Positions 10,901 to 45,009 are shown, numbered from the stretch's first letter. The stretch is 64,000 nt of DNA from Nemertoderma westbladi (GCA_032718475.1 JAUCBJ010006459.1:1-64000); one strand, 5' to 3'. Translations and numbers: made by a program. The notes: a model not told the origin generated them from the sequence alone.

Positions 10901-11577
10901 GGATCACTCTGGGAATGGGTGTCTTGTTGGCTGTGAAGGGCATGTATAGTATAGGCGGGGGGGTTGATGAATTATGTGGGAGTGTTTGAGGGATGTGGAC
11001 TGGTGGAGCAGGAATGGTTGGGTTGCGGTTAGTTGCTGGTGCATTGGGTAAAAGAGTTGGAGAGATAGTGGTATGTATGTTTGTTGGAAATGATTGCGCT
11101 ATGGACTAAAAAATATTTGCAATTTAATCAAAGTTAAATTTGCAATTAAACTAATAATTTCAAAATGTCAGGGAAAATATTTTTTAGTTTACGATTGTCA
11201 ATTATATACATTTGCTACAATTATATACAATGAAAACAAACAAAAATCAACAAACAAGCAACAGACGGGTATGGAAAAATTAACATGATTTGATGAAAAA
11301 TATATATGTTACAATTATATACAAATATATATACAACAAACAAATATTATATTATACAACAAACAAACAACAAACTAGCAGCAGGAATTAATATGATTTG
11401 ATTGTAAGGTGTATATATGTTAAAACAAACAATAAGCAGCAGATGGATATGGGGAAATGATTATGATTTGATTATAATGTATGTATGCTACAATTATATA
11501 AATAAACAAACAGCAAGCAATAAACATATGTGATTTATATATACATGCAACAAACAAAATCCCTCAAACAAAAAAAA

Positions 11578-11726
11578 TGCCTCAGTGAGGCGTAGTCTGT
11601 GCCTCAGTGAGGCATAGTCTGTGCCTCAGTGAGGCATAGTCTGTGCCTCAGTGAGGCATACTCTGTGCCTCAGTGCCACAGTGAGGCATAGTCTGTGCCT
11701 CAGTGAGGCATAGTCCATGCCTCAGA
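11578..11726. repeat. 22-bp tandem repeat with palindromic core GCCTCAGTGAGGC
   Basis: About 6-7 copies of GCCTCAGTGAGGCATAGTCTGT. Confidence 0.9.
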
Positions 11727-18616: not shown

Positions 18617-18742
18617 TATAGAATTATATTCCCTAAATGCCGTGGATTTTCAAAATTTGATTTTATTCGGATTAACTTTGTAAAGATTGCTTTGAGTTCT
18701 CATTCGTATTGGTTCTATCATTTGTACATCTATCGGTCAAGT

Positions 18743-18829
18743 GGTTCAGTAGCTCAGTCGGTAGAGCGTTGGAAATTATATGTGTAGTAGGTGTTGAGTT
18801 CGAATCCTAGTAAGTGCGAATTATTTTTT
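18743..18829 (+). ncRNA. tRNA-like Pol III cassette in U3 of the A 5' LTR
   Basis: TAGCTCAGTCGGTAGAGC (A box and D arm), GAGTTCGAATCC (B box, 18796-18807) and T6 at 18824-29. There is no acceptor stem or normal anticodon arm. Confidence 0.7.
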
Positions 18830-18879
18830 GTACAGAATTTCAACTCATTTAAATTAACCGCTACAAATTAATTGCATTT

Positions 18880-19060
18880 ATCTGTACCAATGAGACTGTA
18901 GTTATTTGATTGTAACCAATGTCGTGCAAGTTATATATTAGCTGGACCAATAGCTATCTTTAAAACCCCGTTAGAACCCATAGAACAATCGAGAATTTTC
19001 TCGATTGATTGCGGCACAAATTTGCTATATAAAGGTGCGATTTGTTCATTAGTTATTCAC
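18880..19060 (+). promoter_or_regulatory. Pol II promoter of LTR A: three CCAAT boxes, HSE-like palindrome, TATATAAA at 19026-33
   Basis: CCAAT at about 18887, 18916 and 18947; CAATCGAGAA-TT-TTCTCGATTG at 18986-19007; TATA box followed by TTAGTT about 20 nt downstream. Confidence 0.65.
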
Positions 19061-21340
19061 TTCTACTTCACAGATTATCTTATCAATATTCTGTTGTGCT
19101 TAGTTTATTTCAGATTACATTGTACATATTATTATAATCTTCTGTAATAAAGTCAGAATATTCTCTCAGCTTTTCTATCTGTTTTACTATGGATTCACTA
19201 CGGTGAACTAACTCAGGGACAGGATGGCCGGCTAGAGATCGGGCCGCAGCAATGAACGGGAACATCACGGGAATGTAGACGAGAGACAACCCGCAATACC
19301 ATTTAGAGTTATTCGCCCATCGCCTGAAAGGTTAGACAGCGTTCGATCCTTGCTACCTAAGTGTAAGACCAAAAGATCAAAAGGTAGACGTAGTGACACG
19401 CTGTAAGCCCAAAATTACATCATAGGGACTGTACTGTCTTGATTCAGGAAAACCCACAGTAGACCTTCACATTCCTACGGGGGGGGGGAGAGAGAGCGCA
19501 GGCAGATACTAGTACGCAGATAGGACGTAGGCACACCGGTACAAGGCATACACATTGGTTAGGGTGCAGCAAACTGTACGCTTAACTCTTGCTAAGTACA
19601 GGTGCGTGTGCGACTATTTGCAGTACGACAGTGTCCATTACATCAGAACTTGTAGGCTAGGGGGTTGCTGTGTTTTTACCTGAATTGGGATTGTACCGTT
19701 CGGGCGGTAGGGCAGTTTACGTACTAGGCGCAAATAAATTGAGGCTATCAGGGATATACTAACATCTACCGTGTCCCCGCCAACGCCCTAATAGGAAGTT
19801 ACCCGGACTACCTGGGTGACTAAAATTCTAGATAGGAGCCAGGATAGCTATTAGTACCTGTACGCCTACAGTAGTAAACTAACACATCTCTTCTTAGTAT
19901 CAGGGACCTGGTACCTAAAATTGCCGAATTCTGGGCGTAGTATTAACCTTATGCCTGAATTTGAGTCCTGGAAATACGCAAGAGGGGAAGGAACCTTATC
20001 ATTCGTGAGTATTGGACCTACAAGTTACAAAATTAGAATATTCGTAAATGCACACCGTACCCAGTAATTATATATGTGAAGGAGCAAAACTGTTTTGACC
20101 GTTCAGAATTAACACGCGCGTTAGAAATTATTTACACCTCGAAATATATAAAATTAACTTTTGTCCGTACTGTGCTTTGCCCGCTAGTTAGACATCTCCA
20201 AATCTCTGCCTGTACCTAGCTAGCGTCTCTTTGCCCAACCATATAAATCACACCGCGGCAAGGTATACGAGCCTCTTAGTCCGTCAGTGAGTCAGCCTGA
20301 TTTTAGGATTCGCTGCGCGGGATTTTGTTTTATCGAAGTTTGTCTGCTCGTAGACTGTTTTCTGCCTCACCGGTTATAAGAGATCGATACTGCAATATAT
20401 TCGCTTACTTAGTTTATTGTTTTGGTGAGAAGGTCGGATTTATGATTTGATTTACAAACTTTACAGTAGGATATTGCAGGTATTGTTACCGTCTCTTCGC
20501 ATAGTAGGAATAGGCGTATCTCTTCAATTAGTAGGAATATGTTTTACTGAACTACGGTTCGGTAGGACTAAAGTTATTTGAAAATTCTGTATTTTGAGGT
20601 AAAAATTTGTATTTGATTAGCTAAGTGCTAATTTTTTGAAATAAAATTTGATTTGAACCGCGTGTAAAATATTTTTGGAATTGAATACCGGTGTTTTAAA
20701 AGGGTTTAAATACCATATTGTACCGGTACAAAATTTTCGTAAAAGTAAAACCTAACTCTTTTGTTTTTTCAGGATTCAGAACTCATTTCTAGACTGTAAC
20801 GGGAGCAAGACCGTGTTTAGCAAGTTTGGGAGATAGATAACTCAACAACTTTGGTTGGGAAAATCGCGTTTCGTCCGCAACGTTAAAAACGGAAAGGTTC
20901 ACGTCCGGTTTGTATCTGGGAATCTGTTTTTCTGGAGAATTATTGGAGTGGGTGAGTTCGAAAAGTTGCATAAATAAGTTAGGCATTACCGTATTAGTTA
21001 AAAATTATTGTGGGTTCCACTGTCTCAAGTATTTATGCATTCCGTATGATTTCTTTGTTCATTGCTGAATTAGTCCGTATTATTGTATTTAATTTACCTT
21101 TTGATAACGCATATCGTTATCCGAATTATTTGTTATAAAATTGGCCGCTAGGCTAATTTTATTATATACTTATTCCGTGACATTTATTTGCTGTAAAATT
21201 GGCCGTTTAGGCTAATTTTATCCATCTGCTATAAAATCGGCCGGTAGGCTAATTTTATAAGACTGTAATTAGTACCGTTTAGATAAATACGGTAAACTCG
21301 ATACTTTGACACTCACTTTACTTGACTTACAACTACCGAA

Positions 21341-24300
21341 ATGAGTGACAAACAAGACTATACGAAAAATACACAAACCGACTATGACTCATGTGACGCG
21401 GATAAGTCAGCAGCGGAAGAACAACAGGGGAAGACTCGCGAGCCTACCGAACCTACACCGTGTGCATCACCAGTACATCCAACGGGAGTACCGGATGCCG
21501 TAGTACGAGGCGACGGCAGGACCGAGGACTTTCTAACTGTTCCGCAACCTAGATACAGGGAAACGGAAATGGTAAGTTCAGCAGGAAGCACAGAAAGTGT
21601 GGTTAGAAGCGTCGGTGGATACATGGCGCATATAACCAGGAGTATTGGAGAAGGCCAACGCTTATTAGACGGGTTGACCGCTCCGATGTCTCGATTCGAG
21701 TTCTACACCCTCCAGGTTAGAGTGCAGAGTAAAGTATATAAGTCCGTAGATAATCTAGTTGGCCTACAAGATCTAGCTAGACAGAGACAGGACATGGATA
21801 CTCAACTTAGAATCCTCGAGAAACTAATGATCACTAGAGAGAAACTGATTCAGTTTAAGTCGACGATTAGACAGATACAACAGGAACAAGCGGACCAGTT
21901 GTTAGGTGAGTCAGTTTCGGACGAATTATTACAACCCGAGGAAGAACAGGAACTGTACCGACTGGATGGACAATTGAAACATCTGACGGACCACTTACGC
22001 ATGTGCGGCGAGGACGTCGGAGATTGGGAAACCGTGCCGGAGGCTACGAGGGAAACTTCACTCGCACAAATCAAACCGGTACCGGGAACACTAGATCAAT
22101 CACTGGTGAGTATTCGCAGCGAAATTGGCGAGGTGAGTATGGCTACGTCAGAAATTGCTCGACAACAGCAGATCTACAGACAACAACAGGAGTGGGAGGA
22201 ACAAACTCAACTCATAATGGCACAAGCAGCAGCAGAAGAAGAGAAACTACGCGTTGCGAATGTTGCGAGAATCTCTCACCTGCAAGAACAAGCTGAGTTG
22301 GAAGTAGCCAAAATGGAAAGGTTAGAGTTGGACATTGCACAACAAGCGGCAGCGGCCGAGTTAGCGCAACGAACGGCAGCGGCCGAGTTAGAGCGACAAG
22401 CGGCAGCGGCAGCGGCAGCGTCCGAGTTGGAGCGACAAATGTTAGCTTCAGAAGCGAGAACCGAAATGAAAAAACGGCAAATAAAGGCTCAATCAGCGAT
22501 ACGACAAGCGGAGTTCGAGGCGCAACAACAACAAACGGAACAACGCGAGAAAGAAGTTAAACTTCGTTTCGAACTCGAGAAGAAGGCGAGAGAATTAGCC
22601 AACGCCAAGGAAGACCTGGATCTACAAGCCCGCGATCGATCGATGAGATCTCGAGACGGACATGATTTAGACCGGTTGGAGGTAAGGCACCGCCAAATCC
22701 AGGAACGAATGAAGGAAGGTTCGATAGGAGCACCCGGACGGGAACGACAATTAGTAAAAGACTTGTGTCAACGATTCCCACAAGTAAATCCTATGTTTGC
22801 ACCAGTTACGACTAAGGAACCTGTTTCGATTGCGGGTAGTAGTAACATTTCTCCTATCTATGGTGCGACGGAACACAGGTTTGTTATTCCGGACGAGTTT
22901 ACACCGCCAAGAGCAACGTCGTCGCCTATTCCGAAGGTCAAGGTAAGTAACCCGCCGATTACAGATCGTAGTAGTTTATTAGTCGGACCTGCACTACTGA
23001 CGACTAAACAGGTGAGTCCACCTCTGACGCCACAACCTGTTACACACTACGCTTACCCAATGACGTTTCGACCTACAAGGCCAGTTGATTCAAATGCTGT
23101 CATTCGCCCACCGGTTCAGTTTACATCGCAATCTACGACTTCAAGGAAGACTTGTGAGCCTACCGAACAACGGAGAACAGTGGATATGCGACCGTTCAAC
23201 CAGTTTGCATCGCAATCTACGACTTCGAGGAAGACTTGTGAGCCTACCGAACAACGGAGAACAGTGGATACGCGACCGTTCAACCAGTTTGCATCGCAAT
23301 CTACGACTTCGAGGAAGACTTGTGAGCCTACCGAACAACGGAGATCAGTGGACGATGTTCCAAAGCAAAACGTTAGAATTCGTACGACGCAACGGACGCG
23401 AGCACGTCGACCACCGTATCCAGGTGACAGTAGTACTTCGAGCGAGTCGGATTACCCGGAATGCGAGGTATTTAGAACAGGAGCGGCCGACAAATGTAAA
23501 CGTGAGCGTTCGGATAATTCATTTATCGACAATCCTCCACAGAATACACCAACACAAAAGGCGTTACAACCAACAGACGCGATCAGTACACAACAGTTCG
23601 CCGACATCCTGCGACCAGTTGTTAACAAGTTGGCTCAGATCGAGGAACGTCTAGAGGAAGGTTATACCGACAGTTCGAGAAATTCCGAATTCGAACACAA
23701 TAGACACCCGAAGGAACCACAAAGACCGGTACCTTCAAACCCCACATCGTATCAGGGAAAAGCGCCAAGAAGGGATATCAACAAGGTTACCAACCAAGGA
23801 CGCGAAACTCTGAACGTTGCAGAGGAGATAGCGAAATTCGCAGCCAGACAGGGATTGCCGGTACAACAACCACCGAAGTTTTCCGGTAGCTCAAAACACT
23901 GGCATACTTTCGTAGACTATATCGAATCCCAGATCGCTGTGTGCGCCTTTACATCACGGGAGAAGTTCAATTACCTGCTCCAAACGTTGTCAGGAGAACC
24001 TAAACGTTTGGCGGAGACTTTCGTCGGTGTACCGGACGCTTTCGAACTAGCGTACGATCGTTTAACTTCGATATACGGAGGTACAGTTAGTATGGCCAGG
24101 TCAGTAATAGAGGAACTCTGTAAGGGAGGGGCTATCACTAAACCCGTCGACTTACTAAAACTAGCTGACGAGATCAAGAACGCTATCACTACCTTAAGAT
24201 CAATTGGACAACTTGATTACGGGAATACCCCTACAGTCCTATTAAAGATAATAGGACGACTCCACCATCGACTTCGTCGGGAGTGGAGGAAGGTCGAATA

Positions 24301-27300
24301 CCAGCGAGAAGAGCGGGGAGGATTCTTAAAATTAGAAGATGTGTACCTTTTAATATCCAAGGAGGCAGTAGTAGAAACTAGATCTAACTACACCGACCAG
24401 CACATCGTGGCAGAAGGAATCACACTGCCATCCTCCAACCGACAAAAACCCCAGACAACATCCACTAAGACGGCCACTTACACCACACCGACGGAATCAC
24501 GACAATTCTCGGACGGAGGTAGGGTATCTGCGCCCATTGGGACAAAACAAACGAGACAGCAACTTGGTACCGACTTCAGTGGCTGCCAATACTGCGAGCA
24601 TCTAGGTAAGCGGTATATCGGTCACAAGTTACGAGGTTGTCGACAATTTCGCGAGTTGAACTCGGAAGAACGACGGCTGCAAATACGGCCACTGGACTCT
24701 TGTTGGCAGTGTACGCGACACGGACACGTCCGTAAAGATTGCCCAAATACCGACACTTGTCCATCCTGTGGACGCAACCACGACGGTCTGCTCCACACAG
24801 ACAGCCACACGCCGACAAAACGCTTCGCCAGGGAACACCCGGAAGCAGCAGCGAGATGTGATGCGGCCTATAGAAAACGAGAATCGAAAACGACTCCAAC
24901 CTTCGTGACCCATATTGAGGATTGCTTCTCAGAACAATCCGGATCGTCGGACGAAGAATCAGAAGACGACGAATATTCCAATGGAGACGAACAACCGTCG
25001 ATCGCGCTTCTGACCACTGACCAACTGAAGGGATTCAGTGTAATCCCGATTAAGATCACTGGCACAAAGGGGAGTAAGAGGATCTACGCGATTCTAGATT
25101 CAGCCTCATCTCATAGCTACGTGGATGAAAAGATAGCTGACGTAGTGACGGATCTTAAACAAGGTAAGCATGTCAGTTATACAGTAAGTAGTATGCACGG
25201 ACAGCGTGCAATACCAGTAACACGAGTTAAGTTGGACTTAGACACTCTTCTTCCGAAATCGCAACACAGCGAGAGGGAGAGGTCTTTGTTGCCCTTTAAA
25301 GATCTAACCTTTGCGGCCACGAAGGACTTTAGTAACCTACTAGGTCCAGTGCCGGAACAATCTCTAGAGGACCGTAAGTATTTCAGACACCTTGGTGTAC
25401 CTGAATGTCCTGTCAATTATAGATCGGTAGCAATGCTGATCGGGACAGACCAATTCAACCTACATCAGGTGTGGGAAACCAGACCATCGGCAGTTGTAGC
25501 GGGAAACGCATACGCCTGCAGAACGCCGATAGGGTGGTATACTCGAGCGCCTGTGCGCACACTAGACGTAAGTGACGAGGAAGACGATGTACAGAGTACA
25601 TGTAGTTTATTAACTACAAATTCAATTCATTCCTTCTCACACGACGTGAACCATACTACACTACAGTCGACAAAACATAACAGACGTGTAACTAGTATGA
25701 TAAGTCACAAGGAGCAGCTAATTCACCAGGTGAGTTTAGAACTTGGGGAGAAGACGAGTCAGCTAGAGATTCCATCGACGACAGATGATAGGCTTGCGAG
25801 TCTACCTACCCCAATAACCTCAACAGTGCCCGTCGAGATCGATGATGACGCGTTGAGAAATCATCAGTTGGAACAAGCTGTACTAGACAAGGAATTAACG
25901 GAGAAGACTATCAGGTGGTTAGAACAAGATACAGCTGAACCTGGTAGCTACGAACCTTGTATGTCGGAACAGGAGAAACAATCTCTGAAGATCATGGAAG
26001 ATACTATCCACCAGACGAAAGACGGACATTATGAGGTAGGGATGTTATGGTGTAGCCAAAGTCCTAAACTCATAAACAACTATCCACTGGCTTTAAGACG
26101 TCTACACTCAATACGGCAACGTCTATTAAAGGACGAGAAGGCCCATCTGCAGTACAACACTCAGATGGAGACGTATTTGACTAAGGGATACGCTATCCGA
26201 ATGACTAACCCAGAGATAGAGACTGACCAGACATACTACCTGCCACATCACTATGTGAGACATCCCGACAAACCAGATAAAGTACGCGTAGTCAACGACT
26301 GTGCGGCTCTGTTTGAGGGAATGTCCCTCAATAGTGAGTTGATGGATGGACCAAACATGAATAATTATCTTATGGGGGTGATTATGCGCTTCCGTCAGCG
26401 TCAAGTAGCTTTTACTTGTGACGTTGAAGCGATGTTTCACCAAGTGAGAGCGTTAGAGCGAGACAGAGACAGTTTGCGGTTCCTCTGGTACCCGGAAGGA
26501 GACTTAAGTCTACCACCGGCGACTTACCAAATGCAAGTTCGCGTTTTCGGTGCCAGAGACAGCCCAAATTGCACGATGTACGCCCTAAAGCAGGCCGCTA
26601 GGGATCAGAAACACCTGTATGACCCAGAGATAATTAGGATTGTGGAGCGTGACTTTTATGTAGATGACGGTTTACAGAGTTGCGACACAGTAGAACGTGC
26701 TACAACAGTAGCACATCAATTACGGGACTGCTTAGCGGGCGGAGGTTTTAACCTCACCAAATTCGCCTCAAACAGTGCCGAATTAGTAGACTCATTCGGG
26801 ACGACTGAGCGTGGAGGTGGTGACATAGACCTAGAGTTCGAACCACTACCGACGACTAAGGTGTTGGGGCTCTTTTGGGACCCAAACACAGACAACTTTC
26901 GAGTGAAAGTGAGACTGGACAGTCAAGAGAACACACTGACAAAGAGATCATGCTTGTCAAAGTTGAGCCGATTGTTCGATCCGTTAGGATTCATCAGTCC
27001 AGTGATACTGCAAGCCCGCATTTATATGCGCAGTATATGGAAGGATGGAATAACATGGGATGAGCCGATCTCATCAGACCAAGTGGACTTATGGAAGACC
27101 TGGGAGGCGGAATTATCTTCGCTAGAGGATTATTCCATACCCAGGGTTTACTTTCCATTACAAAGTACATTTCCTGACAACTTGGAACTACACTGTTTTT
27201 CTGACGCCAGCGACAACGGTTTTGGTGTGGCAGCGTACTTGCGCAGACAAGTAGAATCAGACGAGTTCGATGTTTCGCTCATTACTTCTAAGGCTAAGAC

Positions 27301-30033
27301 CATGCCTACTAAGTATATGACGACACCACGAGCCGAGCTACAAGCCGCAACCCTGTCAACCACCATCGTGAACCTCATACAGACAGAACTACAGTCGAGT
27401 TTACAGATATTTTATTGGACTGACGCGACGTTGGTTTTATTTTACATAAACAACGACACACTCGAATTCAAGACATTCGTTGCTAACCGTCGCGCGGAAA
27501 TTCTAGACCGTTCAATAAAAGGGGATTGGCGACATTGTCCCGGACCACAAAACCCAGCTGATATTGCGTCGCGAGGAATGATGCCTGAGGAATTCTGTAA
27601 ACCGGAGAACAAAGAATTTTGGCAACACGGACCCCAGTTCTTGCAGAAATCGACACAAGATTGGCCTCCGTTATACGACAACAAATCTAACACTATCCCA
27701 AAGGACGCCGAAATCAAGAAACCAAAAAAGGGGAAGACAAAGAAAAGGACGACGGCGGCAAAACTCAAGAAAAAACCGAAGGCGAAATGGAAAGATATAA
27801 CTTCAAAGGTCAAGAGAGGAAGACTTGCGAGCCTTTCTACACCAGACATATCGCCAGACGGTCAACCAGACGCGTTACTAGACGGTCAACCAGACATTCT
27901 ACCAGACACTAGTGACATACTGACAAACAGTAAAGCCGCAGTTTCCCTATTGGAGCGGCCTTCTATTGACAAACAACCAGATACGTTACCAGACGTATCG
28001 CCAGACACATTACTAGACAGTCGACTAGACATTTTGTCAGAAACATCACAAAATGTTCTACCGGACATTAGTAATTTATCGACTAACAGTAAAGCCGCAG
28101 TTTCCCTATTGGAGCGGCCTTGTATTGACAAACTACCAATTTTGACACACTTGAGCAACCATAAGCACGGTGAAACCTCATGTATTACAGATGTGGGTAG
28201 TACCTACGCTAATGTAAATACAGGTGTTACTTTGCGCTCAAGAGACATACCGAACTTGCAACCTATGGTGAAACCTGGGATTAATATCGGCAGAAAAATT
28301 AGTTTACCGAAACCCACTGATCCCATAGAGTTCAAACCACCATTAACGATCGACTTACAAAGTACCGACAATCAAGGTAAGAAGACAAAGAAGGACAAAT
28401 TACTTGTAGACCCGGACGGATCAACAGTCAACAAGGGAATACCTACCGGCGGACCCGTGGGCCCTTCTAGTAATTCAAAACCTTCCAAAATCTCAATTGA
28501 CTTACCTGATGACGTCACAAATACTCATGTCGACCGTATTGTAAACCTAACAGATTCTTGGACAAACGCTTGCCGAAAATTAGCGTGGATTGTACGTTTT
28601 GTACAATACGTTAAAGGCAAACGTGACTTTACACGTCGACTTACATTGACTGAGATTGACAGGTGTGAAATTAAATTAATTCGCCATTACCAACTGCGAT
28701 ATTTCGCGCGCGAATTCACATCTATAAATCAAGGTCAACCAATCAAGTCGTCACCAATACTGAGTTGGAGTCCGATTATTTATAATGGCTTAATTTGTCA
28801 TAAATCTCGGCTTCAAAACATTGACTTTAACACAAACTTTAGGTACCCAATAATAATACCGCAACACCACGAACTACAACGTGCAATGATACTGGACGCA
28901 CATCTACATCTGAAACACGCTGGAAGACACCACTGTCTTTCCTACTTACGTACTAGATTTGTATTAATTTGACCCAGTAAAGCATTAAGTTCAGTGACAC
29001 GTACGTGTATTATTTGTAAAAAGGTACATTCTAGAATAGGTACCCAAGAAATGAGTGAACTACCACAAGCACGACTTCAAGCATTCAAACCACCTTTTAC
29101 AGAGACGGGAATTGATTGCTTTGGTCCCATACATACGAAACGTGGACGTATACTAGTAAAACGCTGGGGACTGATTTTCACATGTATGTCCAGTAGGGCA
29201 GTTCACATTGAACGTGTGATGGATCTTTCCACCAACGCGTTTATACTAGCACTGCGGCGATTTATTGCTAGACGCGGACTAGTAAAATGCTTGTACTCAG
29301 ACCAAGGGACAAACTTCGTTGGTGCTCGGAATGAGATTGCTAGAGCCTTTAAGAAATTAGATCATGATCAAATCTCGAACGAACTGCAACCTCACAAGAT
29401 TGTTTGGAAGTTCAATCCTCCAGATAGTCCTTGGAGAGGCGGAGTCTGGGAGAGATTAATTAGATCTATAAAGACAGCCATGGCAAAGGTCATTCCAGTA
29501 AACCACATATTAACAGACGACCAACTGACAACATTGTTGAAATCGAGGCAATACTAAATACTAGACCAATAGTATTAGTACCCGATGACAAACAATCTCA
29601 ATTTGCTTTAACACCAGCACACCTGCTAATGCAGGCACCGACTACTTTGACGCCGATTTCTATTCCAATAGAAAGCGACAGCTACGGTAGAAAAGCGTGG
29701 AAAATCACGCAACTACTAGCTAACAAATTCTGGGAAATATGGCAAAACCATTATTTGCCCTCTATTTCTGCCAGAACAACTTGGTACAATAACACCCGCG
29801 CATTAAAGCCGGGAGATCACGTGCTGTTGGCAGAAGTGAATCTAAAAAGACGCTTCTGGATAACAGGTGTAATTTTAGCCACACATCCATCTATGGATGG
29901 AGTGACAAGAACTGTGACGGTACGGACAATTGACGGTCGTACAGTAGACAGACCGACTCAACGTCTCGTACTTCTTGAAGAGACTCGTAACGAGTCTGGA
30001 GACTACAAATCTCCACCTAATACTAGTAAATAA
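21341..30033 (+). pseudogene. A gag-pol polyprotein (Gag, PR, RT, RNase H, IN); nonsense at 28970 and 4-bp deletion near 29535, both in the integrase region
   Basis: A 2543-aa ORF plus two downstream pieces. Motifs: ILDSAS, FYVDDG, FSDAS...RAEL...WTD...NPAD, H..HAG..CIIC, DCFGP, SDQGTNF, GGVWERLI and a GPY/F-like tail. The lesions are defined by comparison with A'. Confidence 0.95.
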
Positions 30034-30700
30034 TTAGGAGTTTACAAATAGATTTCCACGTACCTGTACACTGTAGTAAGGACAGCGGTGGGATTCCATT
30101 GTCTTTATATGTGAACATTGAGGGTAGTACCCTTATGTGTCACATAGGAGCGGGATTTGTAGGTATAAGAAATGTAATTCTACTTGGAACTCACAATATT
30201 GAGACATTTTTGAAATTTTAGACAATCCATTTGGATTTGAAAATTTTTAAAAATTTTCTCCAGTGAATAGATTTCAGGGTACAGTCGGGTGGAACTTAAA
30301 ATTAGAGAAACAAGAGAGGAAGACTTGCGAGCCTTTCTTAAAAAAAAAATTTTTTAATTAAATTTTACACGGTCTTGTTTCAATAAGTTACGTCGAAATA
30401 GACTCCCCTATATTTATTACTAATTCTTGATTGCTTATTTTCTGATAATAGTTTGGGATCAAAAGGTGAGTATTTTAGACTCACAGCCAGTTTAGCCCAA
30501 ATTCGTTTTTATTTCGGCAAAAAATTTTAGATAAGAAGCAGCGTGTCATTAAAGAAACCTTAGATCTTAGGCTATGGGTAGGAGGTTAGAGCGTTGTCGA
30601 AGCCCAAAGGGCAGACGAAACTCTCACGTCTCCTCACAACTAACTACAAACTCTGTTGTATTCCCTCTAGTAGTAATGATTATGTAACTACACCCTAATT

Positions 30701-33700
30701 ATGGAGAAAGGGATACAAGGAGAGCCGAGATGGGGATATGATATCCAAGAGGAGGCAGCAGCGCCATTCGAAAGATTTGGAGCCAAGGATTATACTATAT
30801 TTGGTATAAAAGAATTATCGGAAAGTACAGCGAAACTCGTGAGAACTAAATATGACTCGAACGTATTAAAGAGAAGGCAAAACGCATTAAACGAAAGAAT
30901 CGAAAGTTTGCGCCAAACCTTCAACGAACTTTACCCGTACGATGCTTTGTGTGATACGGGAGACATTAGCGAAGACCCCGATACTGAAATTAGTCGTTTG
31001 TATCATACCATGCAATACCTAAAGGCGCATGAACCTATGCCCGCGGTACGCGATGAATTCGATGGAATGCATCTTTACAGACGAACTCGAGGGGACGATA
31101 GAGAAACCAAGGAAGCATTTTCAGTTTATAAACTTTATTATCAATGCGGTTCTTGTATGCGCGAACAACGAAATGCGATTCCGATGCGTTTGAATAAGGA
31201 AAATCCCGAACCGATATTGGCGAGGTGTTCGAATCATCAACAACTACGCTACCAGGAAGGAGGGTATCCTTTATCGAATCCATATCATTCATTTGCTATG
31301 ACCGGACCAAAGGCGGGAGAAACTGTCATTTACCCACCTAAGGTTGTTGAACCCGATGTATTTGAACTTACGCTGGACGAGGCGAATCAGTCAACCCGCG
31401 AAAAGAAAGAAGCTCTTAGCCTATACAGAGCCTACAAGGCTTTCGAGAAAGGTGAGATGGAAGAATGGGGTGGAAGACTCGCGAGCCTACCTTGCCATTG
31501 GACGTCACACGATCAAACTTCAGCTAAGGAGATGACACCGGAAGTTTTCGAGAGCATAAACTTTGCTCAAAACGTTATTCAGAGACTACAGATTGCATCC
31601 CCGGAGAGGCCAAGAGAAATGCAACCGTATAGTACTTCAACTACGAAACCATTGAGTACGACACTCAATTTCCCTATTAGTATACCAGTCCGACAGGATA
31701 CGACGTACGAAATACCCATCGTGGATCATCCAGAAATCATTTCAAACTTGGAGTTTCTTCCTGCAGTTGTTTTCAGCGATATGAGTAAGATATATGATTT
31801 ACGTAGACATATTACTCAAAAGGTCGTGCACAACGTTCCACCTCATATTCAAGATTTCAAGGAACTGGATAGAGCTGGTGCCGACATAGCTCCAAGTAAT
31901 CTGAAAGGATATCTAACCAAGACGATTCGTTTATGGATTGGAACCGGAACCTTCGAGTCGGATACAGATATTGCCGCAGATTGGCGAGGTAAGGTTATTC
32001 GTTTCGATGAGGATAAGGATATAGAGAAGATTTGGCAACCTTCGGAAGAATTGTTGGATGAATGGACTAGGACGTTTAGATCGTTTCAGGAAAACGGTTA
32101 TATGTTTTACGATAACGAGGGCGGCAGTCATCAGCAGAGTTTGACTTCTAAGACTATACAAATTAGAGCGGCGGACGGAGTCCTGCACGTTTTCAGTAGA
32201 CAGAGGAGCGACAAACGAATGCCGATACCTCCAGCGAATACAAAGCGACACCATCTTATCACCGATATAGTAAAGAAGATGGACCAAGCCTGTAATATTG
32301 ACGCTAGAATGCTACCGAAGATGGTAAGAAACATGATTTTAGATAAAACTGTTGTAAAGGTTGGATCAGGAGTAAGGGAGGATTTAATTAGCGACTTCGC
32401 CGGCATGACGGACAGCGATGACCGACTACCGACACCATACGTCGACACTCGACCTCTTATTCTGTGGTCTATAGAACAGGGATATTTTCGTGAGTATAAT
32501 ACTCAGAAGACTGGAACTGGATACATTTCCTACCTGTTATTCAATTGGGATTATAAGGAAAATAAGAGAAACAAGTATATTGAAACTTATGGAGAAGGTG
32601 ATACTCCAGATATGAGTGAGTTTGAATCACAGCTTAAATGGAGAGGATGCATGTATTGGGCTATTACGTCACCTCCAAGAGCGGTCTTACAATATTATTT
32701 AGCGATAGAGTCGTCAGTGAATGTTTGCCTAATCGCCGACATTGTGTCTCGGACTCTCAAAAGACATCCACTTTGTCTCGGAGAAGATCATACGTTCTAC
32801 ATGGAAGGGAGAATTCGTACCGACGTGTTTAGACGATTCCTTGAACCCTTCTACAACTCCGACGCTCAGTGTAATGCCTTTACTCGAGCAGGATTTAGCA
32901 TATTTCGAGACGTGTATCTTCGCTGTGCGGGATCTCTTATCGAAAGACCATCTATGTTTACACTGTTACCCAATGAAGGAGAACGTATCGTGGAAATTAC
33001 GGATGAATCACGGCAGACGCGCGCGCCTATCGGTCACCTTGGTGATGAATTCGAAGTAACTACTACGATCGCCGACGATCCTTTAGAGGAACTTCTTGAG
33101 ATAGAAAGGAACCTCCCGAAGAAATCTCAGACGGAGATTCGACAACTTGAAGCAACAGATGCTATAGTTTGTATACAACCTTCAGAAACCTACCAACCCA
33201 TAGACCCAGATGATTACGATTATAGTGTGGGAGGAAGCGCTCGACCGATTGGAGATCTTATATATGAACGAGTGTGGTACCCTGCGAATACGATGTGTAG
33301 TAAATGTGGCGTCGCTGGACATCATATGGCAAAGTGCAGTGGAAAGCACATTACTACGACTCAGCTAATCTGTGGATGGTGTGGGGATCAAGGGTCTCAT
33401 ACCTTTTATACTTGCTGGAGATTTATGGCCCAATGTACTTATTGCAATATAAAGGGACATCGAGCATCTGAATGCCAACTAAGGGACATACCTTATGAAC
33501 ACGAATCTGTAAAACTCGTGAGGAAGTTATTTGATGAGTGGGAAGATTTAGCCGACGAACATGTATCAGCACAAAGAAGACGGTTTCCGTTGAGAGCGCA
33601 TCTCGGATTTTGGGCGGTAAATCCCCAGACGATGATGTCGGAAGGATATATCTCCGCTATGCCCCAATATGACGAACTTATCGAGGTTGTCGATATTTTG

Positions 33701-34426
33701 CCCCACGACAGCGGATTCCGAGTGGTGCGCGAGTATCTGTTACAAATTCACCCGGATAACAAAAACACGTGGAATTTTCAGAAAGTCGTTAATCGGATTA
33801 CGTATGGTGAATTCGATCGTTTCCGAACTGAAAAGCGGAACAAGGGAGCTTGGTTAACCGTCGCATGGGCGTACCGAGCCGCGTTTTACCACAAACGTAT
33901 ACGAGCGAGCGTATTCGAGGAAGAAGAGGTCCTAGAGGCGACAAATATACCAGCCACTCCGGTTGCGCCGTCTGCACGTCACCCTCGGGAGGACGGGCAG
34001 GGTAGGATCATACGGGTCCAAAAGGTGGGCCAACAATTAAAGAAAATTATTAATGTAGAAGAACGCAAAGGAGTTGAGCCGACTATTCGAGTTACTCGGG
34101 ATACGGTATCACTTCCAAGAGAACCAGTAGGAGGGTCGGGACATACACCAGCTGATCAACAGGGGGCGCAAGCTACTCTTGGGTCTGCGTCGTCCGCTTC
34201 TCGCGCGTTCCCAGACGTTCTACCAACTGTAGTGACGACTGATCGGTCACGAGGAATCGGTCGAGGTTTTGGGATGCTAAATAAACGAATTTGCGAGGAA
34301 ATAGTCGCACCGTCTCTCAACGTCCCAAGTAAACCAGTGACTCGCCCCACAAGTCCCATATCGCGAGCAAAGTCACCTGTGCGCAGTTTTCGAGGACGCG
34401 GCAGGGCTCGATCCACTAAGCGATAA
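30701..34426 (+). CDS. Accessory ORF2 of A (1241 aa): DEDDy 3'-5' exonuclease-like domain plus three CCHC zinc knuckles
   Basis: Intact ORF in the env position. FYDNEG (ExoI DxE), LPKMVRNMILDKTVVKVGSGVREDL (ExoII, WRN/EXD-like), YVDT and QYYLAIE (ExoIII-like). Knuckles: CSKCGVAGHHMAKC, CGWCGDQGSHTFYTC, CTYCNIKGHRASEC. Confidence 0.8.
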   Translation: MEKGIQGEPRWGYDIQEEAAAPFERFGAKDYTIFGIKELSESTAKLVRTKYDSNVLKRRQNALNERIESLRQTFNELYPYDALCDTGDISEDPDTEISRLYHTMQYLKAHEPMPAVRDEFDGMHLYRRTRGDDRETKEAFSVYKLYYQCGSCMREQRNAIPMRLNKENPEPILARCSNHQQLRYQEGGYPLSNPYHSFAMTGPKAGETVIYPPKVVEPDVFELTLDEANQSTREKKEALSLYRAYKAFEKGEMEEWGGRLASLPCHWTSHDQTSAKEMTPEVFESINFAQNVIQRLQIASPERPREMQPYSTSTTKPLSTTLNFPISIPVRQDTTYEIPIVDHPEIISNLEFLPAVVFSDMSKIYDLRRHITQKVVHNVPPHIQDFKELDRAGADIAPSNLKGYLTKTIRLWIGTGTFESDTDIAADWRGKVIRFDEDKDIEKIWQPSEELLDEWTRTFRSFQENGYMFYDNEGGSHQQSLTSKTIQIRAADGVLHVFSRQRSDKRMPIPPANTKRHHLITDIVKKMDQACNIDARMLPKMVRNMILDKTVVKVGSGVREDLISDFAGMTDSDDRLPTPYVDTRPLILWSIEQGYFREYNTQKTGTGYISYLLFNWDYKENKRNKYIETYGEGDTPDMSEFESQLKWRGCMYWAITSPPRAVLQYYLAIESSVNVCLIADIVSRTLKRHPLCLGEDHTFYMEGRIRTDVFRRFLEPFYNSDAQCNAFTRAGFSIFRDVYLRCAGSLIERPSMFTLLPNEGERIVEITDESRQTRAPIGHLGDEFEVTTTIADDPLEELLEIERNLPKKSQTEIRQLEATDAIVCIQPSETYQPIDPDDYDYSVGGSARPIGDLIYERVWYPANTMCSKCGVAGHHMAKCSGKHITTTQLICGWCGDQGSHTFYTCWRFMAQCTYCNIKGHRASECQLRDIPYEHESVKLVRKLFDEWEDLADEHVSAQRRRFPLRAHLGFWAVNPQTMMSEGYISAMPQYDELIEVVDILPHDSGFRVVREYLLQIHPDNKNTWNFQKVVNRITYGEFDRFRTEKRNKGAWLTVAWAYRAAFYHKRIRASVFEEEEVLEATNIPATPVAPSARHPREDGQGRIIRVQKVGQQLKKIINVEERKGVEPTIRVTRDTVSLPREPVGGSGHTPADQQGAQATLGSASSASRAFPDVLPTVVTTDRSRGIGRGFGMLNKRICEEIVAPSLNVPSKPVTRPTSPISRAKSPVRSFRGRGRARSTKR

Positions 34427-34499
34427 AAGGGAGGGCAAGGGTGGACGTAAGACTCGTGAGCATTTCTTATGATTTGTGATTTATTTTGAATTATATGTT

Positions 34500-35060
34500 T
34501 TATATTTAGAAAATTTAGTAAAACTTATATTTTATATTTGTGCTTATTCCGAACTTATGCAATTTGTATTGTTCCGAATTTATGAAATTTAGAAATAAGA
34601 ACTTATATTTTGTAAAACTTATATTTAGTAAAACTTATATTTTATATTTGTGATTATTCCGAACTTATGCAATTTATATTATTCCGAACTTATGCAATTT
34701 ATATTGTTCCGAATATTATGCAATTTATATTTTATGAGCAGTATTACAGTGAAACAGAAAGTAAGGGTAGATGGAAGACTCGTGGGCCTTTCTTATAGTT
34801 TCATTTGTAAAGTGTTATTTTGTATTTAGAAAGTTTTATAGTCAGAAATTTGTGCTTAGAAAGACTCATATTTGTAATTATTCCAAACTTATGCAATCTA
34901 CATTTAGGCACGAAAGTATTTGTAATTACTTGAATTTATGCAATATTTGAGATGCAATAGTAGATGGAAGACTCGCGAGCCTTTCTTATTGTTTTCATTT
35001 ATTTGTATTTGTAATTGTTTGAATTTATGCAATATTGAGATGCAATAGATTTATATTGGT
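34500..35060 (+). repeat. AT-rich degenerate repeats (TTCCGAACTTATGCAATTTATA) in the 3' UTR of A
   Basis: About 8 visible variants of GAAyTTATGCAAT; also present in A'. Confidence 0.8.
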
Positions 35061-35280
35061 GAATTTAATTTAGATTTATATTGTACTTACTTAGTAAAGC
35101 CTTAAATACGTAAAGTTTGAATTTGTAATTATTTTGTATCGAATCATTACGTAGAAAGGAAGTATTGTTTGAAATTTAATTGTAAATATGTAAGTACGCC
35201 CTAAGTATTCTATAGTTTAATTGATTATTGGTGAAAACCGTATATTTTATGCACGATAATATCCTGTTTTCATGGAGCGG

Positions 35281-37204
35281 TATAGAATTATATTCCCTAA
35301 ATGCCGTGGATTTTCAAAATTTTATTTTATTCGGATTAACTTTGTAAAGATTGCTTTGAGTTCTCATTCGTATTGGTTCTATCATTTGTACATCTATCGG
35401 TCAAGTGGTTCAGTAGCTCAGTCGGTAGAGCGTTGGAAATTATATGTGTAGTAGGTGTTGAGTTCGAATCCTAGTAAGTGCGAATTATTTTTTGTACAGA
35501 ATTTCAACTCATTTAAATTAACCGCTACAAATTAATTGCATTTATCTGTACCAATGAGACTGTAGTTATTTGATTGTAACCAATGTCGTGCAAGTTATAT
35601 ATTAGCTGGACCAATAGCTATCTTTAAAACCCCGTTAGAACCCATAGAACAATCGAGAATTTTCTCGATTGATTGCGGCACAAATTTGCTATATAAAGGT
35701 GCGATTTGTTCATTAGTTATTCACTTCTACTTCACAGATTATCTTATCAATATTCTGTTGTGCTTAGTTTATTTCAGATTACATTGTACATATTATTATA
35801 ATCTTCTGTAATAAAGTCAGAATATTCTCTCAGCTTTTCTATCTGTTTTACTATGGATTCACTACGGTGAACAAACTCAGGGACAGGATGGCCGGCTAGA
35901 GATCGGGCCGCAGCAATGAACGGGAACATCACGGGAATGTAGACGAGAGACAACCCGCAATACCATTTAGAGTTATTCGCCCATCGCCTGAAAGGTTAGA
36001 CAGCGTTCGATCCTTGCTACCTAAGTGTAAGACCAAAAGATCAAAAGGTAGACGTAGTGACACGCTGTAAGCCCAAAATTACATCATAGGGACTGTACTG
36101 TCTTGATTCAGGAAAACCCACAGTAGACCTTCACATTCCTACGGGGGGGGGGGGGGGGGGGGAGAGAGAGCGCAGGCAGATACTAGTACGCAGATAGGAC
36201 GTAGGCACACCGGTACAAGGCATACACATTGGTTAGGGTGCAGCAAACTGTACGCTTAACTCTTGCTAAGTACAGGTGCGTGTGCGACTATTTGCAGTAC
36301 GACAGTGTCCATTACATCAGAACTTGTAGGCTAGGGGGTTGCTGTGTTTTTACCTGAATTGGGATTGTACCGTTCGGGCGGTAGGGCAGTTTACGTACTA
36401 GGCGCAAATAAATTGAGGCTATCAGGGATATACTAACATCTACCGTGTCCCCGCCAACGCCCTAATAGGAAGTTACCCGGACTACCTGGGTGACTAAAAT
36501 TCTAGATAGGAGCCAGGATAGCTATTAGTACCTGTACGCCTACAGTAGTAAACTAACACATCTCTTCTTAGTATCAGGGACCTGGTACCTAAAATTGCCG
36601 AATTCTGGGCGTAGTATTAACCTTATGCCTGAATTTGAGTCCTGGAAATACGCAAGAGGGGAAGGAACCTTATCATTCGTGAGTATTGGACCTACAAGTT
36701 ACAAAATTAGAATATTCGTAAATGCACACCGTACCCAGTAATTATATATGTGAAGGAGCAAAACTGTTTTGACCGTTCAGAATTAACACGCGCGTTAGAA
36801 ATTATTTACACCTCGAAATATATAAAATTAACTTTTGTCCGTACTGTGCTTTGCCCGCTAGTTAGACATCTCCAAATCTCTGCCTGTACCTAGCTAGCGT
36901 CTCTTTGCCCAACCATATAAATCACACCGCGGCAAGGTATACGAGCCTCTTAGTCCGTCAGTGAGTCAGCCTGATTTTAGGATTCGCTGCGCGGGATTTT
37001 GTTTTATCGAAGTTTGTCTGCTCGTAGACTGTTTTCTGCCTCACCGGTTATAAGAGATCGATACTGCAATATATTCGCTTACTTAGTTTATTGTTTTGGT
37101 GAGAAGGTCGGATTTATGATTTCATTTACAAACTTTACAGTAGGATATTGCAGGTATTGTTACCGTCTCTTCGCATAGTAGGAATAGGCGTATCTCTTCA
37201 ATTA
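35281..37204 (+). repeat. 3' LTR of A (1924 bp), preceded by short PPT GGAGCGG; tRNA-like cassette at 35407-35493
   Basis: Direct repeat of 18617-20530. Confidence 0.95.
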
Positions 37205-39519: not shown

Positions 39520-40125
39520 AGTAGGTACGCAGTTAGTAGGCAGAAGGTACGTAGTACCTAATTAGTTAGTAGGTACGTAGTACCTAGAGTTAGTTAGTTA
39601 GTCAGAAGGTACGTAGTACCTAAGTTAGTTAGTAGGTACGTAGTACCTAGAGTTAGTTAGTTAGTTAGAAGGTACGTAGTACCTAATCAGTTAGTAGGTA
39701 CGTAGTACCTAGAGTTAGTTAGTTAGTCAGAAGGTACGTAGTACCTAATTAGTTAGTAGGTACGTAGTACCTAGAGTTAGTTAGTTAGTTAGTAGGTACG
39801 TAGTACCTAGAGTTAGTTAGAGAGTTAGAGGGTACGTGGTACCGTTAGTTAGAGTTAGAGGGTACGTAGTACCGTTAGTTAGAGTTAGAGTTAGAGGGTA
39901 CGTAGTACCGTTAGTTAGAGTTAGAGTTAGAGGGTACGTGGTACCGTTAGTTAGAGTTAGAGTTAGAGGGTACGTAGTACCGTTAGATAGAGTTAGAGTT
40001 AGAGGGTACATAGTACCGTTAGTTAGAGTTAGAGGGTACGTAGTACCGTTAATTAGAGAGTCGGAGGGTACGTAGTACCATTAGTTAGAGAAGAGTTAGA
40101 GTTAGAGGGTATGTGGTACCATTAG
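39520..40125. repeat. Tandem array of GGTACGTAGTACC cores with (TTAG)n/(TTAGAG)n spacers between pol and ORF2 of B
   Basis: Directly visible; about 18 cores. Confidence 0.92.
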
Positions 40126-40614
40126 AGAGAGAGGGAGTAAGAGGTAGAAGGGTATATAAGATATAGATATTAGTTAGCAGTTAGTAGCGAGAGGGGGGCA
40201 TATGAGTACAGCTGGGTAAATCGTGTGGCCACACGACGCATACTGCTGTACTGCATAGACCCACAGAGTAGGCCAGAATGTGGATTAGAGAATAGAATAA
40301 TCCATAGGCAGTAGTAAGTAGTAGGACAGTAGAATCAAATTAAAATAGATAAATAAATAGAATAGGGCTGAAAGTTGTGAAATAGTGGCAACATAAGGGA
40401 AGTTATTCTAGAACATAATAAAAGTAACGGACAGAAATTGTAAATTACGCTCATTTACTAGCTTCAAAATTAATTAGGAATAATTTAGGTTAAAAGGCGC
40501 AGTTAAGTAGAAGTAGGCCATTATCGAACTGTACAGAACATCCTAGATACATCACTCATCTGTATTGCGCCTTGGTAAGGCACCACCTTGCAGGTGAGCG
40601 AGTGAACGTTCGGA

Positions 40615-42298
40615 ATGGCGAGTAAGTTGATCAGAAAGAGAAAGGCGGAGTCAGGAGGAAAGGAGATACTGGTGGATTTCACCGAGAGACATCCGGAAGA
40701 GAAGACGAGAGGATACTACGAGAGGTTGGAAAGGGGTCACGCGGCACGAGCGTTGCAGGATCACTTCCGGGAGGCGCACGAACAGCGGCTGGTCGGGACC
40801 TACGGGACCCCGTCGCTAGACAACGCGATCTTCCAACATTTCCACTACGTAGTGAAAGGGGACGAGGCGAAGTTCGGGATTCCGAAGTACCCGAGGGAAT
40901 CACCGAGGAAGGACTGGAAGAGGTTCATAGAGTCCGTCAACAGAGGAGGATATATGATCCTAGATGACGAGGGAACCGTGGAGGACGAAGCGGGTTCGAG
41001 ACGAGGAACGGCAGGGTCGGCCAGGACCATACTCCTACATTTGGCCGCGCCAAATGGGGACATCTTCTTATTCGACCTAGGGACGTATGGGAAGAAGGAC
41101 GGGCCGAAATTAGACCGATTACCGAAAGCGGTACAAGTCTTAGTAAGAGAGAAGTCGACGACGAAAGTGGGATCGGCGATTCGCGAGGACGCGGAGAGGA
41201 TCATCGGTCCGGACGCCACCAACCTCCTGGATATGCAGAAAGTCTTTATGGCTATGACGGCACCGGATGGATTGGGGGTAGTCGGAAACACAGGCCAATG
41301 CGGGGCGGTGGCGATGGGCCAATTATTGGGGCTCGTATGCCACAAACCGATGGACTGGGGGAAGTTTAGGGAAGAATACGGAGCAGAACTAGCGAACTCG
41401 CTAAAGTGGGGAGCGAGACCGGGAAAGCAGGAGGTATATCAATTCCGCAGAGGAGCGATAAAGGTATATCAGAAGCGATATATCCTACAGGAAGACTGGA
41501 TCATGATAAGTTTGCTTAACTTATTTATGACCGTGGTTATCGAGAGGGAACCAGGGGCATTTCTGTTATCGGGATCACCCCTAAGCTACAGGAGAGCCTT
41601 TAAGACGGCCTTTGACGGTCTGGTAGACCACCCGGGGCTGAAGGGTGAGTCGGTATACTATAACAGCCGGCATCTGGTAGACGGGGAGACAGATACACCG
41701 TATCAGAGATGGGAGCAGTTAGAAGCGGATAGACGAGAAGCAAAGGGGACACTACGGACGCGAGTGCGACTGGATGAACGACGAGGAGAAGTTCACAAGG
41801 TTCGAGGAGTGGGCCGACGTCGGGGCCATGACGCGCCAGCGCATGAAGGCCCAGGAGTTTAAGTGGGGTTTCTTCCTTATCAATCAGGAGACTCACATGG
41901 AAATCATAAAGCGGAGGCTACCGTTTACCTACCAAGAGGTAGCAACGGCGGCGTCGTACGCTGGAGTGATGAACACGCAAAGGTATCTGGACAGGTGGAC
42001 GCCAGACAACCGAAGGGAGTTTAGGGATTTCTTGGCGGAGCACGTACCAAAGGCAATGAAAATGATCCTATGGGACGCCACTAGAGGGAGACAACCGGGC
42101 CACTCTGAGGGGCCACCGGCGAAGCGATATCGGGCACTAATAACACCAGCGCCCAAGGAGCCAACGACCGGGATCAGCAGGGAGGTGGCGGCGAAGGTCC
42201 GAAAACAGAAGGCGGATAATGCCAGAGGAACGGTGATAACCAAGAAACGACCCAGGGAAGAGGACGCCAGGGGGAACTATCCCCAGAGGAACAGATAG
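40615..42298 (+). pseudogene. Accessory ORF2 of B: DEDDy exonuclease-like, homologous to A ORF2; frameshifting deletion near 41735
   Basis: GYMILDDEG, LHLAAPNGDIFLFD, RLPKAVQVLVREKSTTKVGSAIREDA and LLDMQ. The second frame resumes with a half knuckle (KQRGHYGREC) and FEEWAD...WGFFLIN, matching A's FDEWEDLAD...LGFWAVN. Confidence 0.8.
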
Positions 42299-43700: not shown

Positions 43701-45009
43701 AGTATACAAAATGCAGTATTATTGCCTAGTAACCAATTCATAGCTACTATATGGTTTTCACTTTGAGAAATTTCGCCCTCTAGTGGCAGACTGGGGAACT
43801 TCAGACTACTCTGTGACTCCGCAAAAGATATAGCCTATATTGTAATAGATACCGAGTGGGGGGGGGGGGGTCAAAATTAAGTAATAATATATCTAAATAA
43901 GTCTCAAACATCTTGCCTCATGGCTCGCCCCTCAGAACTCTTAAACAATATAGGTTCATAGTTTTTAAGGAAAACTGGTAAACGAGATTTGTTAATAGTT
44001 AATAGAAAACAATATATAAAGTAAAAGTAATACAAATAATTAAAGTAAAAGTAAATACAAATATTTAATTTAAAATTAAATACAAATAAATAAATTAAAA
44101 TGAAATACAAATAAATAAGTATCAATAAATAAAAGAGCTGAGGTGTCACTTATGACACCCTCTTGGGCAGCTTTGTGACAGTTGGACAACACAGACACCA
44201 TTGCGTGTTAGGGCGCTAATCAGTCTGATTAATTAGGATAATCAATTAAACCCTAACTAGGAGTCATAAGACAACTATTAGGATGTTGATTAATTTTCCT
44301 CCATGATCATCTTTTAGGTTGTAATCTAAGAGATGAATATAATTTTCAGAAGCCTCAATATCGATTGTACTTAAAACTTTCCTTGCTTTTTCAGAAAAAA
44401 ACAATTTTATAATTATCATCACCTCGACGGGAAATAGTATAATCAATAATAATATACGGCTCGCCATCTTCTGAAAAAAATTAATGTCTTACTATTGGCA
44501 TATCCATATCAGAAGACATTATTTAATTTATTTTAATGTAAATCAAACAAAGTAAAAACTTTTTAATCTAAAACCATTATGCGCAGTTGATTATCGATCG
44601 TCGATTCTTTCAAGTATATGATGCGAGTAGCAGATGGTCGTCGTAGAGTGGAATTGAGTGAATTTCAATAGTCCTCCCTACGGGATGTCCCTTGAAAAGC
44701 ATAGGGAGGACATCCTTCTACTACTGGGGCGTGTCACTGAATTACGACACTATAAGTAGTATAGACTTGGGTGGCTTTGTGACACTTAGACCAAACTGAC
44801 TGGCGCCAGACTGTCTGGGTGACACCCAATGTCACCCTATGGGTGTCATTTGGCACCTCCTAATTAGGCTATTTAGACCCTAATTGACAGGTGTCATCCA
44901 TAAAATAGTACAATTAAACCATAATTTCGTAGGGATAGATGTCGATCTAGTTTTATTTCAAACTTTTCACCACCCTCGTTGTATTGCATAATAACAATTA
45001 ACTCGTCTA

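Follow-up and report, generated by a model that had tools for sequence, protein, structure and literature searches.

The 20-nt motif and its host element

The window analysed here is the whole 64,000-nt stretch of Nemertoderma westbladi DNA (GCA_032718475.1 JAUCBJ010006459.1:1-64000), which is a nest of retroelements. Within it lies element A, an 18,588-bp BEL/Pao long terminal repeat (LTR) retrotransposon (18617-37204, + strand) that carries the subject of this study, a repeated 20-nt near-palindrome. We compared A with element B, a 5'-truncated and broken copy of the A family with 97% identity (49331-62889, -), with element C, a sister of A at 68% identity that runs off the window edge, and with element D, within whose pol gene A is inserted. 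Each of these four elements has at least one broken open reading frame (ORF).

Paired LTRs, Pfam domains and a 5-bp target-site duplication (TTGAA) identify A as a BEL/Pao LTR retrotransposon belonging to a large and diverse family. The 1.9-kb 5' LTR (18617-20530, +) is 99.3% identical to the 3' LTR (35281-37204, +), and the LTR termini are TA...TA, not TG...CA. The gag-pol region (21341-30033, +) matched DUF1759 (E = 6e-11), Peptidase_A17 (E = 1e-42) and DUF5641 (E = 4e-22) and has the domain order protease, reverse transcriptase (RT), RNase H, integrase; two defects interrupt it, an in-frame stop near 28970 and a break of the frame near 29500. It is followed by a second ORF, ORF2 (30701-34426, +). 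In contigs of four sequencing runs, 17,933 contigs of run X1 aligned along 14.3 kb of the A family, and 1,368 were less than 90% alike. The RT-RNase H region of A is 36-43% identical to 80 related loci, and the nearest named polyproteins, from a nemertean and a jellyfish, showed about 44% identity across a fifth of the query. No Pol relative was found among viral contigs. Additionally, no TGG-type primer binding site follows the LTR of A (18617-20530 side), and D likewise lacks a TGG start.

The motif occurs at 11 sites in three reading frames and in noncoding sequence

The motif has the consensus GGAAG-R-CT-YGYG-R-GCCT-WY-C and forms a 20-nt dyad, whose copy number, positions and boundaries could be established directly. 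The first-pass annotation, made from the sequence alone, had reported a quasi-palindrome of about 20 nt at 11 places in A, and we found the motif at all 11. Its 17-nt pattern matched exactly at nine of them (21429, 23145, 23229, 23313, 27818, 30318, 31472, 34773 and 34966). All copies lie within the transcribed internal region, seven of the 11 within coding sequence, and none was found in either LTR or in the 5' untranslated region (UTR).

Following the + strand, the first copy lies at the gag N-terminus (21429-21448, read as KTREPT) and is degenerate or absent at the corresponding position of C. The next three occupy a gag linker, one in each unit of an 84-nt tandem triplication (23145-23164, 23229-23248 and 23313-23332), the first being orthologous to a copy in C. 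A variant copy is located in the linker between protease and RT (25787-25806, DRLASL); it had been placed at about 25788 and does exist, starting at 25787, and it can just as well be read as inverted. The copy in the linker between RNase H and integrase (27818-27837, GRLASL) and that in the noncoding pol-ORF2 spacer (30318-30337) belong to a stretch of 28 identical nucleotides beginning at 27811 and 30311, as had been noted. One copy lies inside ORF2 (31472-31491, GRLASL) and three in the 3' UTR (34447-34466, 34773-34792 and 34966-34985), of which that at 34447 is decayed, with three differences from its intact counterpart in B. A possible degenerate twelfth copy in an ORF2 linker (33012-33031, +) is weak: its matrix score was 19 against a shuffle maximum of 12.6, and the matrix was trained on the motif sites themselves, so that its scores are partly circular.

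Because the gag trio sits in the tandem triplication and the 3' UTR trio in duplicated AT-rich units, the 11 copies reduce to seven clusters, separated by gaps of 1.15-3.2 kb. Element B carries the motif at seven places orthologous to those of A (51528, 51725, 52064, 55044, 56196, 58748 and 60779). The two copies reported near 2355 and 3499 in C were located at 2354-2373 (-, KACEPT, orthologous to A 23145) and 3499-3518 (-, EGSRAY, with no A copy at the corresponding place). All three reading frames are used, as claimed: A supplies two, KT[RC]EPT in gag and [GD]RLASL in pol and ORF2, and C adds the third with EGSRAY.

The edges of the motif are sharp. In nine compared sites (seven from A, with one per gag tandem set, and two from C, leaving out 25787, 34447 and 33012), 14 of the 20 columns are invariant in all nine, whereas ten flanking columns on each side agree in three to six.

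A chance origin was ruled out. Only 8e-6 matches would be expected in the 14.7-kb internal region of A, the matrix scores, partly circular as noted, exceed those of shuffled sequence, and 596 Gb of prokaryote genomes yielded 30 single matches to the 20-nt version, with about 35 calculated by chance. Viral contigs gave 11 single matches to the motif pattern, each a perfect hairpin with no relation to the element. Constraint on the encoded protein was likewise ruled out as the cause, given the three frames and the noncoding copies. Rfam returned no match at gathering score in the window, and a tRNA search of the window gave no tRNA identity for the motif. We also considered what we take to be a BANP/Kaiso-like core (TCTCGCGAGA); the flanking bases differ, and TG variants are frequent. 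Separately, an unrelated 11-mer occurs three times in A coding sequence (22124, 31216 and 31980, +) in unrelated flanks, which may be chance.

Motif sites are gained, lost and homogenized within families

Comparison of A with C revealed turnover of motif sites. Fourfold sites in same-residue codons are identical at 145 of 383 positions (38%), i.e., synonymously saturated, while the orthologous motif at 23145 in A and 2354 in C is identical at 18 of 20 nucleotides. The site lies within one of the three blocks that contain the 12 windows (of 4001) with at least 19/20 identity between A and C, and the contribution of local protein conservation to this value is not fully separable. The 18/20 identity against a 38% background, together with the sharp 20-nt edges, the use of three frames and noncoding sites, and the turnover, supports the claim of retention at the nucleotide level. 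At the position of A 21429, C keeps only a remnant (13/20). At position 6, 10 of the 11 A copies have A, whereas both copies in C have G; this family-specific base indicates that the motif has been homogenized per family. Motif sites have thus been gained, lost and homogenized family by family.

Within the A family, a subfamily with about 88% identity to A has kept its spacer site intact; two extra bases stand immediately ahead of the motif, and position 9 is C. In a more distant contig type, the alignment to A runs to the motif end and then diverges. Among 40 listed variant places (of 942) in the read contigs, none fell inside the motif (about 0.6 expected), and reads at the spacer site showed no substitution across 98 nt, flanks included; neither comparison had the power to reveal constraint.

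For distant relatives, we searched the best 80 of 494 BEL loci (611 kb), allowing up to three mismatches. The motif was present in none of the 80, and no comparable dispersed repeat was seen in these; the repeats flagged in loci L040, L049, L070 and L091 were mostly large duplications, not dispersed motifs. The motif peptides were absent from six of six distant BEL polyproteins. Absence from other relatives had been named as a finding that would speak against the original proposal; the motif is indeed lacking from the 80 distant loci, but the sister C, at 68% identity, has it. We conclude that this repeated cis-element is real and lineage-specific and that the BEL/Pao clade carrying it is unusual. 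In the literature covered, which includes few subscription papers, we found neither a dispersed palindrome nor an exonuclease ORF described for BEL/Pao elements.

The copies carry direct signs of patch copying, namely the 28-nt identity between sites 2.5 kb apart (including 7 nt of flank), the tandem triplication and one inverted copy. These would also be expected if the motif had no function and were a quasi-palindrome that provokes pausing and template switching of reverse transcriptase, copies itself and survives in linkers and UTRs. Such neutral copying would suit the restriction to one lineage (0/80 distant loci), the single decayed A copy, the position of all in-frame gag-pol copies (6/6) in linkers of below-median conservation, and the comparison of A with B, in which three substitutions fell in eight motif sites where about 2.6 were expected, revealing no constraint. 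It accounts poorly for four other observations: identity ends at the 20-nt edges in most pairs, fourteen columns are invariant, no other palindrome of A has spread, and the orthologous A/C site outlasted the saturation of synonymous sites. We regard it as unlikely. Even if the motif did no more than copy itself, the concerted evolution of such a 20-mer within one retroelement would be unusual.

ORF2 encodes a predicted exonuclease-knuckle protein

ORF2 of A encodes about 1,240 amino acids (aa), and a DEDD 3'-5' exonuclease domain is predicted for about aa 460-700 of P0001. Three CCHC knuckles follow at aa 873, 898 and 919 and add to the CCHC knuckles encoded in Gag. The ORF2 of D (40606-42298, +), split in two frames, is homologous to the exonuclease-like region (23% identity, pairwise E = 6e-7). 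Searching 1.84 billion proteins with a profile built from the two ORF2 sequences yielded five, all unnamed (E = 2.5e-5 to 6.6e-4), and in the resulting seven-way alignment D58, E60, D148 and Y253 are invariant in all seven sequences and in DEDD motif order. The DEDD pattern consists of D-x-E in ExoI, D in ExoII and Y-x3-D in ExoIII; in A ORF2 the final acidic residue is either E or displaced. In Atlas, 24 of 30 feature matches belonged to the PF01612 3'-5' exonuclease set (score 0.91), a level that shuffled proteins reach in 4-10 of 100 cases. Pfam gave no exonuclease match on A ORF2 itself. The structure models were of very low confidence (pLDDT 31 and 38), and Foldseek found no match for them; sequence searches of PDB were empty or returned spurious matches. 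ORF2 is therefore likely, but not proven, to be an exonuclease-knuckle protein, its nuclease role being predicted from sequence.

Word-indexed searches and metagenome contigs provided no ORF2 relatives, and tblastn found none in the 80 distant BEL loci, many of whose contigs end shortly after pol. Two unnamed proteins, P0010 and P0012, share the layout of an exonuclease followed by knuckles, which suggests that the ORF2 family is present in other organisms. Some nematode BEL elements carry an exonuclease ORF.

The motif as a candidate docking site on the sense RNA

The centre of the copies shows a strand bias. On the sense strand it reads Y-G-Y-G in all 13 copies (11 in A, two in C), with G10 and G12 invariant and C9 and C11 varying to T, although the CpG transitions that separate A from B show strand symmetry (24 vs. 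20). The knuckles of HIV nucleocapsid (NC) bind tetraloops through the G residues at positions 2 and 4 (PMC7599994). Our preferred, though tentative, reading is that the 20-mer is a family-specific cis-element whose copies act as putative docking tags on the sense RNA, read via the N-G-N-G centre by the CCHC knuckles of Gag or ORF2.

Under this reading, copies would spread as short patches via template switching or ectopic conversion and would persist wherever the protein tolerates seven foreign residues. Selection would then keep clusters at roughly one in every 2 kb, since a transcript of some 16-17 kb may need many docking points; the usual BEL element is about half that length. The docking points would serve selective packaging, compaction or protection of the long transcript. 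Site turnover between A and C, together with A6 in one family and G6 in the other, suits a reader encoded by the element itself. Also in favour of docking tags are the sharp edges, the use of three frames and noncoding sites, the preserved A/C ortholog, the intact spacer site of the diverged subfamily, the even spacing of the clusters, the restriction of all copies to the transcribed internal region, and the lack of any Pfam domain that binds double-stranded DNA.

Folding gave a mixed picture. The sense-strand hairpin of C was predicted to be strong, at -7.6 kcal/mol (z = -2.0, equalled by seven of 200 shuffles). In A, three canonical copies gave -0.4, -2.0 and -2.0 kcal/mol, values that 171, 135 and 146 of 200 shuffles equalled. 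The hairpin is marginal in A because A6 faces C15. The weak folding in A makes a pure structure signal unlikely, and the stem might form only upon protein binding. Of the interpretation first offered, a distributed RNA signal is the half that fared better; in A, an RNA hairpin standing alone is weak (-0.4 to -2 kcal/mol, no better than shuffles), and the analogy with VANC target motifs has lost ground as well (see last section). As a separate observation, a second small hairpin with a GGCC/GGCT-type stem and a GGTA-like loop occurs in the A 5' UTR at 21139, 21198 and 21237 (+) and once, as an ortholog, in C (4468-4487, -), with energies of -6 to -11 kcal/mol; it includes the complement of the right half of the motif.

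Several results weigh against docking tags on the sense RNA. Besides the poor energies of the A copies, the A-family change at position 6 disrupts a sense-strand pair that is present in C, folding in 60-220 nt of context predicted the hairpin for only two of the 11 copies in A, and at most A sites the fold of the antisense strand is the better one. The strand bias of the centre could rest on as few as two mutation events if the copies derive from one another, and reading 25787 as an inverted copy turns G12 into A, which breaks the centre pattern. Element D lacks the 20-mer despite its related ORF2. The seven clusters of A are spaced more evenly than random (coefficient of variation 0.30, P = 0.006), but this evenness is confounded, since the linkers holding in-frame copies are spaced by the domains. 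The lack of constraint between A and B and the below-median conservation of these linkers, both described above, count on the same side.

The same 20-bp dyad could instead be a site on double-stranded DNA for a dimeric protein, either a product of the element or a transcription or chromatin factor of the host, which would keep the provirus open or insulated from silencing. Dyad symmetry is typical of dimer sites, and each A copy combines an A6 half with a G6 half (25787 does so if read as inverted), which suits orientation independence, as do the inverted copy at 25787 and cluster orientations of six versus one, without significant bias. CpG-to-TpG changes are tolerated, which is common in DNA motifs. 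Precedents for such a site are the Sirevirus palindromic repeats and the VANC and TnpA motifs, and the palindrome array of D precedes its ORF2 as Sirevirus clusters precede env. However, both 1.9-kb LTRs, the seat of transcription control, are motif-free, Pfam identified no domain binding double-stranded DNA in Gag-Pol or ORF2, and a co-evolving homodimer should alter both halves of its site, whereas the A-family change affects one. CpG decay in the A family is also mild (56/1378, or 4.1%, vs. 116/4351, or 2.7%; 1.5-fold, P = 0.011), so that methylation pressure looks low. We regard a DNA site as somewhat unlikely.

Alternatively, copies could pair with each other as RNA, within or between two packaged genomes, and thereby dimerize, align or compact the transcript without a dedicated protein. 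Predicted duplexes between copies (-8 to -30 kcal/mol) are more stable than the hairpins (-0.4 to -4 kcal/mol); for every other canonical copy, 25787 is the strongest partner (-20 to -30 kcal/mol), and the centre variants C9U, C11U and A13G retain G.U pairs on the sense strand. Short palindromes drive dimerization of Ty1 and of retroviruses (PMC5035971). Such energies are inherent to any palindrome, though, and antisense duplexes scored equally. The conserved mismatches at positions 3 and 6 weaken pairing of like with like, even though in the GRLASL frame they fall at third codon positions and would be free to be repaired. We consider pairing of this kind to be improbable.

The docking-tag reading can be extended to self-recognition, in which an exonuclease-knuckle protein evolved by animal BEL/Pao elements would read the palindromic tag of its own family (the 20-mer in A, B and C, the 13-mer in D) on its own RNA and would protect, package or de-silence only that family. 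Tag and reader would co-evolve, and the system would be a candidate counterpart of VANC at the RNA level. Both ORF2-bearing lineages in the window carry a repeated palindrome of differing form, and two cases do not make a rule; we hold this extension to be decidedly speculative and rather improbable.

The motif bears on how LTR retrotransposons select and handle their own RNA and on the role of their extra exonuclease ORFs. Element A offers an exact, short and repeated candidate signal beside candidate readers, and its sister families supply natural variants, A6 versus G6 and the different palindrome of D. It also provides a case of a cis-element pasted into protein-coding linkers in any frame.

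Neighbouring elements and further features of the window

The palindrome array of D (39546-40120, +) occupies the pol-ORF2 spacer, directly upstream of D ORF2. In it a 13-nt odd palindrome (GGTAC-GTA-GTACC type) is repeated in tandem 18 times, with 14 identical copies and four variants. At its ends this palindrome has GGTA/TACC, similar to the outermost bases of the A/C motif. A 22-nt palindrome-based tandem repeat is located just outside the 5' LTR of D (11574-11725, +), and a BEL fragment with 71% identity to D lies at 44600-46900 (-).

In A, 12-nt coding repeats make up a long insertion between RNase H and integrase (27841-28150, +), and their copy number varies in B and in reads. The LTRs of A contain a tRNA-like A-box and B-box (35407-35480, +, with a twin in the 5' LTR), and such sequence is also present at the LTR of C (7260-7350, -). 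ARAGORN calls no tRNA there; the boxes are possibly a captured head of a short interspersed element or a Pol III/TFIIIC site.

A non-LTR endonuclease ORF adjoins B (47974-49374, +), and a further non-LTR-like fragment is found at 10300-10971 (-). A 36-nt minisatellite of about 29 units (7950-9012, +) has open frames on both strands, and the Pfam matches there are repeat artefacts. The stretch 9530-9710 (+) is a possible host exon with a likeness to a fucolectin/F5-8 domain.

Comparison with known systems

The motif is a member of none of the closest known systems, i.e., the Sirevirus repeats, viral packaging signals and VANC motifs.

At the sequence level, the nearest precedent is provided by the repeated motifs of Sireviruses (RM boxes, PMC2829016), which are also palindromic, high in copy number, CpG-containing and confined to one LTR-retrotransposon lineage, with extra motif clusters next to an additional ORF, as in element D. 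In their hosts, plant Ty1/copia elements, they cluster in the LTRs and ahead of env, and they have a CGG-CCG core (PMC2829016), whereas the A motif is absent from LTRs, runs through coding sequence in three frames, lacks the CGG-CCG core and resides in a BEL/Pao host.

VANDAL elements with VANC (PMC5735166) and Spm with TnpA (10.64898/2026.08.24.746577) share with A a family-specific motif, tandem amplification and an extra ORF. VANC motifs, however, are 8-9 nt long, nonpalindromic, located in noncoding DNA of plant DNA transposons and linked to demethylation (PMC5735166). ORF2 is unrelated to VANC by the searches run and looks RNA-acting. The VANC analogy drawn in the first-pass annotation is weakened by these differences in motif size, symmetry and location, by the apparent RNA activity of ORF2, and by a CpG decay of only 1.5-fold.

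The DEDDy exonuclease ORF3 of the bdelloid rotifer LTR elements Juno and Vesta and of Athena elements (PMC5408684) resembles A ORF2 as an extra ORF after pol with a DEDD-type domain. These elements are not BEL/Pao, and A ORF2, likened to ORF3 by description, is far longer and adds three CCHC knuckles; in the main text of PMC5408684, neither "hairpin" nor "palindrom" occurs. The signals recognized by Egalitarian/BicD (PMC13186709) are read by a protein with exonuclease homology and are used by a retrotransposon, the I factor. They require two A-form helices, each 6 bp or longer, set apart by 3' bulges (PMC13186709). The 20-mer differs in forming at most one 8-bp mismatched stem.

Dispersed viral packaging signals are loosely degenerate. 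Those of single-stranded RNA viruses (PMC6281560; 10.64898/2026.06.18.733228) have in common with the A motif that many short signals are distributed along a long RNA and overlap coding sequence. With the NC-bound GGAG/GGUG tetraloops of HIV-1 (PMC7599994) the motif shares a four-base centre whose second and fourth bases are G; the HIV-1 signals are clustered in the 5' leader, whereas the A motif consists of near-exact 20-mers with a weak stem. By analogy, dispersed packaging signals would be the nearest functional counterpart of the motif.

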